The notes under the pieces: generated by a model
The model's database searches: none
What the model was told of the DNA's origin: nothing
What the model saw: only the letters and a program-made list of their open reading frames with translations
Made by a program: the position numbers and the translations under genes
Part shown: positions 1-61,777 of the stretch, in pieces
Numbering within the stretch: the stretch's first letter is position 1
Layout: the number at the start of each line of letters is the position of its first letter
Source: Escherichia phage vB_EcoM_LNA2
Direction: 5' to 3' (one strand)
Sequence record: MZ311865.1
Length of the DNA stretch: 64,000 nucleotides

Positions 1-2277
1 ACACTTACTACTAAATTAATGGGCCTTCGTAATGATGGCGCAATGGTATTACGTCGTTCGCTTGCTATTGGCACAATTACCACTGACGAAAATACTAATA
101 ACTATGGCTCTCCTACTCCAATGGGAGAAAGATATATTGCTTTGGGCGATGCTGCCACTGGTTTAAAATACATTAAGCAGGGTGTTTATGATTTAGTAGG
201 TAATTGGAATTCTGTTGCTTCTATTACTCCAGATAGTTTCCGTAGTACTCGTAAAGGTATATTTGGCCGTTCCGAGGACCAAGGTGGAACATGGATAATG
301 CCGGGAACCAATGCTGCTCTCTTGTCTGTTCAAACACAAGCTGATAATAACAATGCTGGAGACGGACAAACTCATATCGGGTACAACGCTGGCGGTAAAA
401 TGAACCACTATTTCCGCGGTACTGGTCAGATGAATATCAATACCCAACAAGGTATGAAAATTAACCCGGGTATTTTGAAACTGGTAACTGGCGGTGAAAG
501 TATTAGCTTTAATGCCGCAACTGGAAGTATTAATTCTACATTAGCTTTTCGTCTTAATAAAGGCATAATTATTGATGGACCTGATAATCAGGGATTCCAG
601 TTTAACGCCCCGACGGCTGCAGATGGTACTAGAAGTATATACTGGAACAGTGGTACTCGCGCAGGTCAAAACAAAATCCCTGTTACAGTTAAAGTGTGGG
701 GTAATTCATTTAACGCATCTGGCGATCGTTCTCGTGAAACGGTTTTTGAAGTAGCTGATGGGCAAGGTTACCATTTTTATTCTCAACGCGTAGCTCCTGC
801 TCCTGGTTCTACCGTCGGACCTATTCAATTTCGAGTTAATGGTGGTTTATTAACTTCAGGTAGTATTGTTACTTCTGGTTCTATTACAACTGAATCTTCT
901 TTAAGTGTTAATAATGGCATGTCAGTAAACGGACAAGCTAAATTCGGTGGAACAGCTGATGCATTAAGAATTTGGAATGCTGAATACGGCGCAATTTTCC
1001 GTCGTTCAGAAGCATCATTATATATTATCCCGACTCCTAAAGATGCTGGAGAATCAGGCGGTATAAGTAATCTTAGACCATTGATAATAGAACTGAACAC
1101 TGGCACAGTTAAAATGTCGCATGATGTTCATTTAGGAGATTCTGGATCTGGTACAGGATTATTACAAGTAAGTAATAGTCTTAAAACTATTAAAATGATA
1201 TGTCCAGTAACTATTACTGAACGTAATGCAGCGCTTACTCTAGATTCTCCTTCATCTTCTTCTGCTAATTATTTACAGGGTTCTAAAGCTGGAACTAGAA
1301 CGTGGTATGTTGGTCTTGGTGGCTCTGGAAATGATTTATCACTTTATAGTCAATCTTATGGACACGGTCTTGTTATAAGCGATAATTTCGTGGCAATCAG
1401 TAAACCTCTTAAAGTTGGAAATGCTCAATTCGGTACTGATGGTAACATTACTGGTGGTTCTGGTAATTTTGCTAACTTGAATACCACAATAAATAACCTT
1501 AAGACGGATATTGTGTCGAGTTACCCAATTGGTGCTCCGATTCCTTGGCCTACTGATACACCTCCTGAAGGTTATGCCATAATGGAAGGTCAAACATTTG
1601 ATGCTGGCTTGTATCCTAAGTTAGCTGCGGTGTATCCTTCCGGCACTCTGCCTGATATGCGTGGTCAAACTATCAAGGGTAAACCATCTGGGCGTGCTGT
1701 ATTAAGTACAGAAGCGGACGGCGTTAAGTCACATAGCCATAGTGCAAGTGCATCAAGCACAGATTTGGGTACTAAAACTACGTCAAGCTTTGATTATGGT
1801 ACTAAGACGACAAGTAGCTTCGACTATGGTACTAAGACCAGTAATACCACTGGTAACCATAACCATACCGTGAGTGGTAATACTGGTTCCGCTGGTGCGC
1901 ACCAACACGCGCGTTCAGGTCCTCAGGTACAAGGCGGCATACCCACTAGCGTATTCTATGATGGATACAATAGTGCTGGTCCAAACGGCAACGCTAAATT
2001 CACTGCAACCGTGAGCGGTGCTACTGCATCGTCGAATATGGCCAAAACTTCTTCAGACGGCGCCCACACCCATAGTTGGTCAGGAACTACTAGCGCTACT
2101 GGTAACCATGCTCATACTGTGGGTATTGGTGCTCATACCCATTCGGTAGGTATTGGTGCCCACTCTCATTCGGTAGCGATTGGTTCTCATGGCCATACTA
2201 TCACTGTAAATAGTACAGGTAATACAGAAAACACGGTTAAAAACGTTGCTTTTAACTATATCGTTCGTTTAGCATAA
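1..2277 (+). CDS. 37: Long tail fibre distal subunit gp37, C-terminal ~750 aa (5' end outside window)
   Basis: ORF open from nt 1; Gly/Ser/Thr-rich fibre sequence, C-terminal His-x-His boxes, ends ...NYIVRLA as I recall for T4 gp37; followed by gp38 and t. Confidence 0.9.
1771..1842 (+). repeat. Tandem 30-bp in-frame repeat in gene 37 ([10 protein letters not shown] x2.4)
   Basis: [26 protein letters not shown] with synonymous differences between copies. Confidence 0.8.
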
Positions 2278-3528: not shown

Positions 3529-3801
3529 TTAGTTGTTAGAATACATCGCTAAATGACGATAAATATTTTCAAAACCTTCATTGAATTCACTAATCAGTGT
3601 TTTCTTTTCTTCGGCAGTTAAATTTGTAATTAGTTTTCTGAACGAATTCTGATTTAGCTGCCGACCATCTTTTTTAATTCCAATCTCATTCAAGAATCCG
3701 ATGAAACTTGCTCGGTCTTCAACAATATCTTCCCTAGAGAATTTAATCAAAATAGAAGCAATAGTAATAATTTCACGTACGATTTCAATGTCTTTATTCA
3801 T
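3529..3801 (-). CDS. asiA: Anti-sigma70 AsiA
   Basis: 90 aa MNKDIEIVREIITIASILIKFSREDIVE... matches recalled T4 AsiA; convergent with t. Confidence 0.9.
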   Translation of the reverse strand: MNKDIEIVREIITIASILIKFSREDIVEDRASFIGFLNEIGIKKDGRQLNQNSFRKLITNLTAEEKKTLISEFNEGFENIYRHLAMYSNN

Positions 3802-5662: not shown

Positions 5663-6295
5663 TCACAGTACATTAGTTACAAGGGTAATGATTTCTTTGG
5701 ACACATTAGGGAAGTCAATGTAAGTATATTTACCACCGATCTTAATCTTAACATCATTTTCAAGAGAAGTAAACAGCTTTGATTCAGTTTCTGACATGTT
5801 GTATGCAAAGATTCTAAGAGCGCCATCTCGACGAATTTCAATTTGGCGAATGCCTAGAACTCGTTTAGCGAATCGAACTTCTAAGTTACTACGGTTTTCA
5901 CCAATTTCTTTAACTTCAACTTTATCTTTAATATTTTCAAAAACAAAGTTTGCTAATTCATGCATTTCAGGAGTAACTCCACGTGCTTTTCTAGTGTTAC
6001 GTTTCTGAAGAAGTTCTGGAGCATTTTCTTTGGCAAAGAGGTCTGCAGCTTTTTGGATAATATCCATTGCTTCGCCTGTTGCTACAAGTCCATCACCGGA
6101 TTTTTCGACTAAACCTTTCTTAATCAATACACCAATGTTAGAGTTAACAACTGATGCATTGTATTCCGCTTCCAGAGCTTCACGGACATTGGCAGCAGTG
6201 GTGAAGTTGTTCTTAATGATATAAACCATTATTGCAGCAGTTTTTTCATTCAGAGCGTTTTCAGAAGCTTTGATGATGTAAGTAACTTTAGACAT
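5663..6295 (-). CDS. motA: Middle-transcription activator MotA
   Basis: 210 aa, MSKVTYIIKAS...GVLIKKGLVEKSGDGL... matches recalled T4 MotA; early promoter upstream. Confidence 0.85.
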   Translation of the reverse strand: MSKVTYIIKASENALNEKTAAIMVYIIKNNFTTAANVREALEAEYNASVVNSNIGVLIKKGLVEKSGDGLVATGEAMDIIQKAADLFAKENAPELLQKRNTRKARGVTPEMHELANFVFENIKDKVEVKEIGENRSNLEVRFAKRVLGIRQIEIRRDGALRIFAYNMSETESKLFTSLENDVKIKIGGKYTYIDFPNVSKEIITLVTNVL

Positions 6296-6352
6296 TTTAT
6301 TTCTCCAAATTAGTATTTGTTTTGATAGGTCTATAATATCATGTTTGAAGCA
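6286..6352 (-). repeat. Direct repeat copy 1 (motA promoter/leader/start)
   Basis: About 65 bp near-identical to 6606-6673. Confidence 0.8.
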
Positions 6353-6361
6353 AAAGTAAAC
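6333..6361 (-). promoter_or_regulatory. Early promoter (GTTTAC-17-TATTAT) upstream of motA
   Basis: Part of duplicated ~65-bp leader. Confidence 0.6.
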
Positions 6362-6399
6362 TTTATTTTGGGCTCTTTTTCCAAAAGCCCTGGTAAAAT

Positions 6400-6615
6400 T
6401 TACAAACTCATTTCTTTAATAAGGCCAATAAGTTTTGCCTTTTTAGAACGAAGCTTTTCTAAACGATGTCCATTTGAACCGCGAACCACTAAAGAATTGA
6501 TTTCAACTTCTAAGAAATTTAATTCTTCAACAAGTGCTTTACGGGGAGCATTCATACCAGGTTTAACTTTACCAAAACGAGTAGTTGTGTTTTGGGTTAA
6601 TTTCATTTTAGACAT
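6400..6615 (-). CDS. Hypothetical basic protein, 71 aa
   Basis: ORF track; own promoter and leader duplicated from motA (starts MSK like motA). Confidence 0.5.
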   Translation of the reverse strand: MSKMKLTQNTTTRFGKVKPGMNAPRKALVEELNFLEVEINSLVVRGSNGHRLEKLRSKKAKLIGLIKEMSL

Positions 6616-6673
6616 TTTATTTCTCCAATTTGGTTGTTTTGTTTTGATAGGTCTATAATATCATGTTTGAAGC
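6606..6673 (-). repeat. Direct repeat copy 2 (motA promoter/leader/start duplicated)
   Basis: About 65 bp near-identical to 6286-6352 with small indels. Confidence 0.8.
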
Positions 6674-6683
6674 ACATGTAAAC
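6655..6683 (-). promoter_or_regulatory. Early promoter (GTTTAC-17-TATTAT), duplicate of motA promoter
   Basis: Drives ORF 6400..6615. Confidence 0.6.
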
Positions 6684-6708
6684 TGTTTTGTGAGAAAAAT
6701 GCACAAAA

Positions 6709-6724
6709 GGGAGCCGAAGCTCCC
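6709..6724 (-). terminator. Intrinsic terminator after gene 52
   Basis: GGGAGC-UUCG-GCUCCC followed by U-rich tract on the transcript. Confidence 0.6.
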
Positions 6725-6800
6725 TAATCATGTTTGTCCAACCAATACAGCCAAATCACTAGTGCAGCTATTGCACCGAGAAATCCTAAGGCTAGGGCAC

Positions 6801-8126
6801 TCAAAGTGCCTCCAAGTCTTTAGTGTACTCTGTCACAACATCGGTAGACTTCCAATACTCATTTTCTTCTTTCTTAGCTTTAGCTTCTTCGGCTAGTTTA
6901 CGTGCTTCATCGGAAGTGATATGGAAGATGTTAAGACCTACCAGTTTATCGACATGTTCTTTATACATTTCTATTTGTGCTAGCTCTTCAGTCAAAGCTT
7001 TACGAGTCTTGCCCTGAATCACAATTTCACCGTTGATAACTTTTTTGATGAAGTGTGCCTTAGCAAAAGCCAGTTTAAATGCTTTTTCAGATTCAAGGAT
7101 TTTGTTGTCAATACGTTTCTGAACGTAAGTCTTACGGACTTCAACAAAATCTTTGATTAAGTCCACTACGTTATCGTAGACAGCTAATTTACCCTTTTCA
7201 TTAATCACTGTGATGTTTTGTGAACGACGTTCGATGAGACTAAAATCTTTCATGATTTTTTCATGACGTAGCTCTTCATCATCAGGAAGCGAGTACTCTT
7301 TACGGAACTTCACCTTAAACCCAAAGCCGTGTTCACCACAATCATCTTCCCATGAGATTAGACCTTTGTCTTCCAACGGGTCAAGAACCTTACTCACATA
7401 CGTTTCACGGTCGAATTTATATGGGATTTCAGTTATCTGCATTTGAGTGCGAGATGTGAACTTATACGTTCCGTGAATCTCATAACGCCCATCAACTTCA
7501 TGTACTTCACCACGGAATTCCGGGAATTCAACTTTTGGCTTAGTGACATTTTTACCTTGAAGAGCTTGTAATACAGCCTTTTTTACCGATTTAAAACTAT
7601 GAGGCAGAATATTTGTTGCGTAACCGGTTGCAATACCAGAGACGCCATTCAAAAGAACTGTCGGAATAATAGGAAGATAGAATTTTGGTGGAATGTGTTC
7701 TTTATCTTCATGAGCTGGAGCATATTCAGTATCTTTATATACGTTATAGAAATTTTTACTTACACGAGCAAAAATATAACGAGATGCTGCAGCTTTTTGG
7801 ACTGTTCTAGAACCAAAGTTGCCTTGGCCATCTAACAGTGGATAGTTGTTGTTCCATGTGTTAGCCATCAATGCACCTGCATCTTGTGCAGAAGATTCAC
7901 CATGGTGATAACCTAAATCTGCAACACCGCCTGCAATTGACGCAAGTTTATGAAATTTTTCTTTATTACCACGAGCCAAATCTAACGCACGATGGACCAC
8001 AAAACGTTGAACCGGCTTAAATCCATCAATCATGTTTGGGATTGCACGGTTTTCAACGGTGTACATCGCATATGCTAAGGCTTCGTTATCAATAATACTT
8101 TTTAGATTACGAGAATTCAATTGCAT
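6801..8126 (-). CDS. 52: DNA topoisomerase II medium subunit gp52
   Basis: 441 aa, MQLNSRNLKSIIDNEALAYAMYTVENRAIPNMIDGFKPVQRF... GyrA-like; T4 synteny. Confidence 0.9.
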   Translation of the reverse strand: MQLNSRNLKSIIDNEALAYAMYTVENRAIPNMIDGFKPVQRFVVHRALDLARGNKEKFHKLASIAGGVADLGYHHGESSAQDAGALMANTWNNNYPLLDGQGNFGSRTVQKAAASRYIFARVSKNFYNVYKDTEYAPAHEDKEHIPPKFYLPIIPTVLLNGVSGIATGYATNILPHSFKSVKKAVLQALQGKNVTKPKVEFPEFRGEVHEVDGRYEIHGTYKFTSRTQMQITEIPYKFDRETYVSKVLDPLEDKGLISWEDDCGEHGFGFKVKFRKEYSLPDDEELRHEKIMKDFSLIERRSQNITVINEKGKLAVYDNVVDLIKDFVEVRKTYVQKRIDNKILESEKAFKLAFAKAHFIKKVINGEIVIQGKTRKALTEELAQIEMYKEHVDKLVGLNIFHITSDEARKLAEEAKAKKEENEYWKSTDVVTEYTKDLEAL

Positions 8127-61747: not shown

Positions 61748-61777
61748 ATTATACTCCAACCATCCTTGGTTGTAAAC
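61748..61777 (-). promoter_or_regulatory. Early promoter cassette (GTTTAC-18-TATAAT)
   Basis: Same family as 20520-20549; upstream of ORF 60769..61719. Confidence 0.6.

Follow-up and report, generated by a model that had tools for sequence, protein, structure and literature searches.

Probable PeSL-type promoter cassettes on either side of a small accessory gene in the variable 52-motA interval of RB69-like Mosigvirus phages

Introduction

Promoter-early stem-loop (PeSL) cassettes of T4-type phages were described by Arbiol, Comeau, Kutateladze, Adamia, and Krisch in 2010 (PMC2839356) and by Comeau, Arbiol, and Krisch in 2014 (PMC4122927). The motif comprises a stem-loop, an A/T-rich region, sigma-70-like -35 and -10 elements, and an SD sequence with a start codon at the 3' end (PMC4122927; PMC2839356). 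PeSLs flank ORFans in hyperplastic regions, and crossovers between the -10 element and the ATG give rise to indels and minicircles (PMC2839356, PMC4122927). The hosts described for them are RB49/phi1, PST/T4, and nt-1/KVP40 (PMC2839356, PMC4122927). RB69, JS98, and motA are not mentioned in the main text of either paper.

The other system closely related to the present one is the motA promoter of T4, where the interval between gene 52 and motA contains only motA.1 and has a single promoter. Strong early promoters of T4 are of the UP/-35/TGn/-10 type (PMC2988021). The GGAG SD sequence of the T4 motA mRNA is a RegB cleavage site (PMC2988021). The consensus of the RegB/S1 site reads GGAGRAYARAA (PMC1702504), and the RegB encoded by RB69 is divergent and cuts GGAG (PMC3014915). 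Here we analyzed the 52-motA interval of an RB69-like phage, in which the promoter, leader, and start codon of motA are present twice.

Results

The window analyzed was a stretch of 64,000 nucleotides from Escherichia phage vB_EcoM_LNA2 (MZ311865.1). All genes at the locus lie on the minus strand. The gene motA (5663..6295, minus strand; 210 aa) encodes the activator of middle transcription, and gene 52 (6801..8126, minus strand), which encodes the topoisomerase II medium subunit, forms the conserved upstream boundary of a variable interval. The locus was 98-99% identical to that of RB69-like Mosigvirus phages, e.g. SHSML-52-1, HX01, and AlbertHofmann, and the MotA protein of the window was 50-51% identical to Tequatrovirus MotA (T4, T6, and relatives).

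The interval was found to harbor two direct repeats, both on the minus strand and 320-322 bp apart. Copy A (6287..6361, 75 nt) is located upstream of motA and extends into it. It consists of the -35 hexamer GTTTAC (6361..6356), a 17-nt spacer, TGa plus the -10 hexamer TATTAT (6338..6333), a leader of ~31 nt, the SD sequence GGAGAAATAAA, and ATGTCTAAA, which represents codons 1-3 of motA. Copy B (6607..6683, 77 nt) is arranged in the same manner upstream of and into an ORF of 71 aa; its -35 (6683..6678) and -10 (6660..6655) hexamers are followed by the leader, the SD sequence, and ATGTCTAAA as codons 1-3 of that ORF. Upon global alignment of the two copies, 70 of 77 columns were identical. Two mismatches fall right after the -35 hexamer; the leader, which is ~31-33 nt long in the two copies, has three more and differs by a 2-nt indel. 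A core of 36 nt, GCTTCAAACATGATATTATAGACCTATCAAAACAAA, was the same in A and B (the longest exact run was 37 nt in another computation). The final 22 nt, TTGGAGAAATAAAATGTCTAAA, were also identical, and so was the SD plus start segment GGAGAAATAAAATG, which closes both copies at the 3' end as it does in PeSLs. The first-pass annotation had described a duplication of ~65 bp. The duplicated promoter, leader, SD sequence, and start codon proved to be real, but the repeat measures 75-77 nt, and the end coordinate assigned to it, 6673, falls short of the -35 hexamer of copy B. The promoter had been given as GTTTAC-17-TATTAT, which is correct for both copies; each has in addition TG at -15/-14.

The core occurred exactly twice in the 64-kb window with up to 3 mismatches allowed, against an expectation of 0.00 from 100 shuffles. 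A promoter scan returned 16 early-promoter-like sites on the minus strand of the window, the pairwise identity of which over 80 nt averaged 0.59 (sd 0.05). The A/B pair was the top pair among them, with an identity of 0.87, ~5 sd above the mean. Thus, the likeness of A and B goes well beyond a shared promoter consensus, and the shuffles together with the 16-site comparison ruled out chance or such a consensus as its source. A related idea is that functional constraint alone, i.e. the presence of two optimal early promoters and ribosome-binding sites, keeps the copies alike without exchange. It is in keeping with the extended consensus of T4-type early promoters, which reaches beyond the hexamers (PMC2988021; PMC1524935), and with the -10/+1 motifs that other promoters of the window have in common, e.g. 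TATTATAGACCTATCAA. However, the A/B identity exceeds the mean of this promoter family by the margin given above and includes non-consensus positions of the spacer and the leader. Further evidence against this idea came from related phages (see below).

In sequence, GTTTAC-17-TGaTATTAT of both copies matches a sigma-70-type early promoter, as is expected for a PeSL. In agreement with the PeSL motif, AAAATAAAG precedes copy A and TTTTTCTCACAAAACA precedes copy B. The leaders were predicted to be unstructured (fold z = -0.57 for copy A), and a search of Rfam with positions 6100..6900 on either strand yielded no match at E <= 1. Both copies read GGAGAAAUAAA, matching the RegB/S1 consensus at 9 of 11 positions and deviating from it at positions 7 and 8. 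From this match and by analogy with T4, RegB may plausibly switch off the motA and 71-aa ORF mRNAs together.

Upstream of each copy lies a different hairpin, which corresponds to the stem-loop of the PeSL motif. Stem-loop A (6370..6390, minus strand), GGGCUUUU-GGAAA-AAGAGCCC, is situated between the stop codon of the 71-aa ORF and promoter A. Its folding energy was -12.2 kcal/mol (z = -2.9), and that of its JS98 equivalent was -13.1 kcal/mol (z = -4.75). The hairpin is conserved in Dhakavirus, where a compensatory change preserves the pairing (GAGCUCUU/AAGAGCUC; G-C to A-U in JS98), and EcS1 carries a near-identical hairpin ahead of its motA promoter. Downstream of stem-loop A follows AAAAUAAA. 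This sequence lacks a U-tract, and a role of stem-loop A as a terminator is therefore doubtful. Stem-loop B (6708..6725, minus strand), GGGAGC-UUCG-GCUCCC followed by the U-rich sequence UUUUGUGCAUUUUU, is located directly upstream of promoter B and had a folding energy of -15.7 kcal/mol (z = -3.55). It looks like an intrinsic terminator that closes the gene 52 transcription unit, and T4 has an equivalent of it. The terminator scan gave the 6708-6725 hairpin as a plus-strand candidate only, and it was not in the minus-strand list. The UUCG form of the loop is shared by the window and most other relatives. In RB69 (~3720..3740 of the RB69 locus), the tetraloop is flipped on the same stem, which reads GGGAGC-CGAA-GCUCCC on the mRNA strand.

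The 71-aa ORF (6400..6615, minus strand) represents the cargo between the two cassettes. It was assigned to phrog_6200 (PHROGs, E = 1.6e-39), a family of unknown function, and Pfam returned only a sub-threshold match and no family for the protein. A search of 5.8 billion proteins produced 8 clusters only, all from this phage group, and in database searches the ORF was confined to Mosigvirus and Dhakavirus-type phages. The protein is basic, as had been stated in the first-pass annotation (pI 10.6; 15 K+R versus 6 D+E). It was 72-76% identical to the Dhakavirus orthologues, with ~23% nucleotide divergence, and a dN/dS of 0.16-0.22 (~0.19) at dS > 1 was obtained against the orthologues of JS98, Bp7, VR5, and Manna. 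Judged by these comparisons, the ORF is a real conserved gene under purifying selection. An AlphaFold model of the protein (pLDDT 76) contained helices at residues 23-44 and 50-70, which form a generic helical hairpin. No helix was present before residue 23, and the first ~10 residues were coil-predicted with a pLDDT below 50. A Foldseek search of the model against the PDB found nothing below E = 0.8.

Two further observations were made on this ORF. In ECCR664 (901..1116 of its locus), it has a divergent C terminus and a stop 3 codons early (68 aa). Its dN/dS versus the window was 0.8, and this copy may be decaying. On the plus strand, antisense ORFs are found at 6341..6658 (105 aa) and 6663..6896 (77 aa). 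Both start with MFEA(K/H)VN because each begins inside one repeat copy. They were set aside as genes: the sense frame is under purifying selection, and the antisense stretch shrinks or shifts frame in Dhakavirus. Most likely, they are repeat artefacts.

The comparison with the T4 motA-52 interval, which had been proposed in the first-pass annotation, was carried out. In T4, the terminator and the region upstream of the promoter, TTTTTTCACAAAACGGTTTAC, are the counterpart of the copy B flank, TTTTTCTCACAAAACAGTTTAC, and not of the copy A flank. By this correspondence, copy B, together with the terminator and TTTTTCTCACAAAACAGTTTAC upstream of it, stands where T4 has its sole motA promoter. Thus, the ORF occupies the place of the motA promoter of T4.

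In JS98, Bp7, and VR5, the ORF, stem-loop A, and both promoters were present at the same place. The homology between A and B ends ~10 nt past the -10 hexamer in Dhakavirus, where the ORF has its own leader, ...GAAATGGAGACACAAAAATGAATAAG, and the start ATGAATAAG (MNK), and the motA leader reads ...CGGAGATTAAAATGTCTAAA. The start of motA is ATGTCTAAA in T4, in JS98, and in the window. Because this sequence opens motA in all three and the Dhakavirus ORF opens with MNK, we deduced that MSK is ancestral for motA and that the ORF obtained it in the Mosigvirus lineage. The presence of two promoter copies with different leaders in Dhakavirus likewise implies that the ORF is older than the duplication of leader and start. 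On the basis of these alignments, the duplication is an event that overwrote the 5' end of the ORF with motA-type sequence in Mosigvirus and did not create the gene. The earlier suggestion that the MSK start of the second gene stems from motA was therefore borne out by the motA starts, but the accompanying suggestion that the duplication created this gene had to be given up in view of the ORF conserved in Dhakavirus, its dN/dS, and its own leader and MNK start there.

The same data bear on the possibility that the motA 5' region simply underwent a recent tandem duplication and that the ORF then arose de novo behind the copied signals. Such an event would fit the inclusion of the motA start and first three codons in the repeat, and T4 has one promoter and no such ORF. 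It is nevertheless scarcely credible, given orthologues at the same locus in Dhakavirus with the identity and dN/dS reported above, the leader, SD sequence, and MNK start of which are not motA-like. The Dhakavirus orthologues with their non-motA leader, SD sequence, and start show that the coding body of the ORF is older than the homology of leader and start.

MotA proteins at least 95% identical to that of the window were found in 152 phage records, and the ORF at the same threshold of at least 95% was found in 76 only (both counts include GenBank/RefSeq duplicates). About half of the database phages with near-identical MotA, RB69 among them, do not have the ORF. The gene 52-motA interval measures 185 nt in RB69, AV115, RPN187, and 308Ecol101PP versus 505 nt in the window, a shortfall of exactly one repeat period. 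AlbertHofmann (Bas47, with the ORF) and ChristianSchoenbein (Bas46, without it) share both their assigned species and the sewage plant of origin.

Copies were typed by two segments, namely the start of the spacer (TTTT in A versus ATGT or ATAT in B) and the leader (CAAATACTAATTTGG in A versus CAAAACAACCAAATTGG in B), and junction classes were read from 14 individually retrieved loci. Counts of junction classes from BLAST identity bands were dropped as only roughly informative, some ORF-carrying genomes having homogenised leaders. In the ORF-less class B-B (AV115, RPN187, 308Ecol101PP, AV109, ChristianSchoenbein, O157tp3, JK45, and moha), the remaining copy is B-type up to ATGTCTAAA, which places the crossover within the 22-nt identity of the SD-start region. 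RB69 and PTK form the ORF-less class B-A, and the combination of a B-type spacer with an A-type leader places their crossover within the 36-nt core. The reverse combination, an A-type spacer with a B-type leader, was found in mar005P1 (ORF-less class A-B). The breakpoints of the 320-bp indel consequently lie inside the repeat motif, within the core in some genomes and within the SD-ATG segment in others, as reported for the indels at PeSLs. Mosaic copies were also seen in ORF-carrying genomes: NHEP10 has a B leader in copy A, and UGJNEcP2 has an A spacer and a B leader in both copies.

The 41-nt cores of the two copies within one genome were identical in JS98 and VR5 and at most 1 nt apart in Dhakavirus overall. 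Lineage-specific changes were present in both copies, i.e. GCTTTAAAC and GATACTAT in Dhakavirus and TTATGC in VR5. This is a signal of concerted evolution of the two copies, read from only ~3 diagnostic sites; the 41-nt core containing them is under functional constraint as well. Functional constraint alone, introduced above, does not predict lineage-specific substitutions common to both copies, and it is already contradicted by the mosaic A/B combinations and by deletion junctions inside the repeat, which amount to physical exchange. We consider this explanation highly improbable. The first-pass annotation had also suggested that the ORF likely captured the motA expression signals. A complete copy of motA-type signals does stand ahead of the ORF, but the presence/absence polymorphism and the mosaic copies do not agree with a one-off capture.

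Salmonella phage Manna was found to carry a Dhaka-type ORF in a T4-type backbone. The left junction coincides with the SD sequence of a T4-type motA promoter/leader; on the right, the junction falls within the spacer of what is now the motA promoter. Different small ORFs occupy the 52-motA interval of T4, IME523, HMGUkp2, EcS1, and JS98, as would be the case in a PeSL hyperplastic region, and in other genera unrelated small ORFs are found in this interval, each behind an early promoter. By comparison of all these loci, we showed that related phages gained, lost, and swapped the ORF by recombination between the copies.

Since the ORF occupies the same position in Dhakavirus, we favor, by parsimony, its ancestral presence; the junction alone reads the same for a deletion and for an insertion. 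A variant of this explanation, differing only in direction, assumes that the ORF-less state is ancestral in Mosigvirus and that the module of ORF, stem-loop, and promoter was inserted, e.g. as a PeSL minicircle from a co-infecting phage. The symmetrical junctions are compatible with it, Manna demonstrates that the module is able to enter a foreign backbone, and the type strain RB69 is without the ORF. On the other hand, the identical position of the ORF in Dhakavirus, at the nucleotide divergence given above, suggests long residence, and at least one ORF-less junction class must derive from an ORF-carrying genome because both A-type and B-type leaders precede motA. Insertion is thus a possibility that we take seriously but doubt.

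Discussion

The two repeats are very probably a pair of PeSL-type cassettes, each with a stem-loop, an A-rich upstream region, a strong sigma-70 early promoter, an SD sequence, and a start codon. They enclose a small accessory gene in the variable 52-motA interval of RB69-like Mosigvirus and would function in expression as well as in recombination. Because their anatomy and behavior are those of PeSLs and this locus is absent from the main text of both PeSL papers, we regard them as a new instance of a known mechanism. Shared features are the repeated composite motif, the flanked small ORFans, the indels between close relatives, and the crossovers from -10 to ATG. The position of the stem-loop upstream of the promoter is that seen in PST, whereas in RB49/phi1 it is often within the promoter. 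Unlike the PeSLs described so far, a cassette of the window serves an essential regulator, motA, and the first 9 nt of each coding region are part of the homology. A further difference is the polymorphism itself, which comprises several junction classes as well as mosaic copies and extends over ~150 sequenced genomes. Minicircles and promoter activity were shown experimentally for the published PeSLs and are putative for the cassettes of the window.

With regard to expression, each cassette would direct immediate-early transcription of its downstream gene by host RNA polymerase, and both genes would be translated from the same unstructured initiation region. The GGAG and A-rich tail of this region resemble the RegB/S1 site on the T4 motA mRNA. 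The 71-aa protein and MotA would consequently be made in the same short early burst. With regard to recombination, comparison of the loci shows that the 75-77-nt direct repeats act as substrates for homologous recombination and gene conversion. Exchange between them deletes or inserts the 320-bp module (ORF, stem-loop, and promoter) and homogenises the copies. This exchange extended the homology to the SD sequence and the first three codons, changing the ancestral MNK of the ORF to the MSK of motA.

The cassettes also resemble the early promoter of T4 motA, which drives the same gene from the same position after the gene 52/motA.1 terminator and has a related upstream region, the GTTTAC -35 hexamer, a GGAG SD sequence with an A-rich tail, and the start ATGTCTAAA. 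In contrast, the T4 promoter exists as a single copy, its spacer and leader differ, and the RegB site is putative in Mosigvirus.

Morons of lambdoid phages are ORFs with their own promoter and terminator that are inserted between genes. The 71-aa ORF is similar in that it, too, is small and accessory, lies between two conserved genes, and comes with a promoter and a hairpin of its own. It differs from morons in its GC content of 0.33, which is near that of the phage (0.37) and not host-like, and in its movement via homologous exchange of phage regulatory cassettes rather than via illegitimate capture. The novel ORFs of T4-like phages were argued by Nolan et al. (2006) not to be moron-like (PMC1524935).

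The locus provides a clean, population-scale natural example of the shuffling of a small accessory gene in T4-type phages, in which copies of a regulatory cassette are expression signals and recombination sites at once. Public genomes display several independent junction classes, mosaic copies, and one inter-genus transfer. Being a further case of a mechanism already described in T4-type phages, the locus leaves the current view of phage genome evolution as it is. For annotation pipelines, ORFs with first codons copied from a neighbor have to be expected. Bas46 and Bas47 offer an almost isogenic natural contrast for the role of the 71-aa protein.

A MotA-box-like heptamer, TGCTTCA, is present on the minus strand in the 17-nt spacer of both promoters (6346..6352 and 6668..6674). 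JS98, Bp7, and VR5 have the perfect form TGCTTTA, and TGCTT(C/T)A is kept in Mosigvirus. On the other strand, the motA promoter of T4 carries AAAGCATA (= TATGCTTT). Taken over the whole window, TGCTTYA is over-represented (64 found versus 24 expected). A MotA-dependent middle promoter, defined by a MotA box (a/t)(a/t)(a/t)TGCTTtA located 12 +/- 1 bp upstream of the -10 element, was rejected on spacing: TGCTTCA is 7 nt from TATTAT, and there is no usable -10 at 11-13 nt. A literature search on motA autoregulation found nothing relevant. One could speculate that the 71-aa basic helical-hairpin protein is a dispensable partner or modulator of the early-to-middle switch, strictly co-expressed with MotA, and that the spacer heptamer, ~5 bp out of register for activation, lets MotA shut off both early promoters in a negative autoregulation of motA. 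The shared signals would then be more than a recombination scar. We regard this proposal as unlikely.

Further observations concern the neighborhood of the cassettes and the window as a whole. At 6724..6804 (minus strand), an ORF encodes a hydrophobic peptide of 26 residues, (M)SALALGFLGAIAALVIWLYWLDKHD. The ORF begins with a TTG that shares bases with the gene 52 stop codon TGA (TTGA), and GGAGG is found just ahead. In the same overlapping position (ATGA), JS98 has an unannotated hydrophobic ORF of 34 aa, and T4 has motA.1 (49 aa); the sequences are essentially unrelated. From its placement, the 26-residue ORF looks like one for a membrane micro-peptide that is translationally coupled and conserved in position. 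In phage Bp7, motA (1222..1856 of its locus) is annotated as two CDS, 1222..1431 and 1431..1856; the split reflects a sequencing error or else a frameshift in this essential regulator.

Apart from copies A and B, the window contains another group of near-identical early promoters, GTTTACAACCAAGGATGGTTGGAGTATAAT, with -35 hexamers at 61777, 20549, and 19991 (minus strand). The promoters at 61777 and 20549 share an exact run of 32 nt and 77% identity over 80 nt. The ORFs downstream of the three promoters (214, 164, and 165 aa, respectively) are unrelated, which suggests that the LNA2 genome generally contains repeated promoter cassettes.
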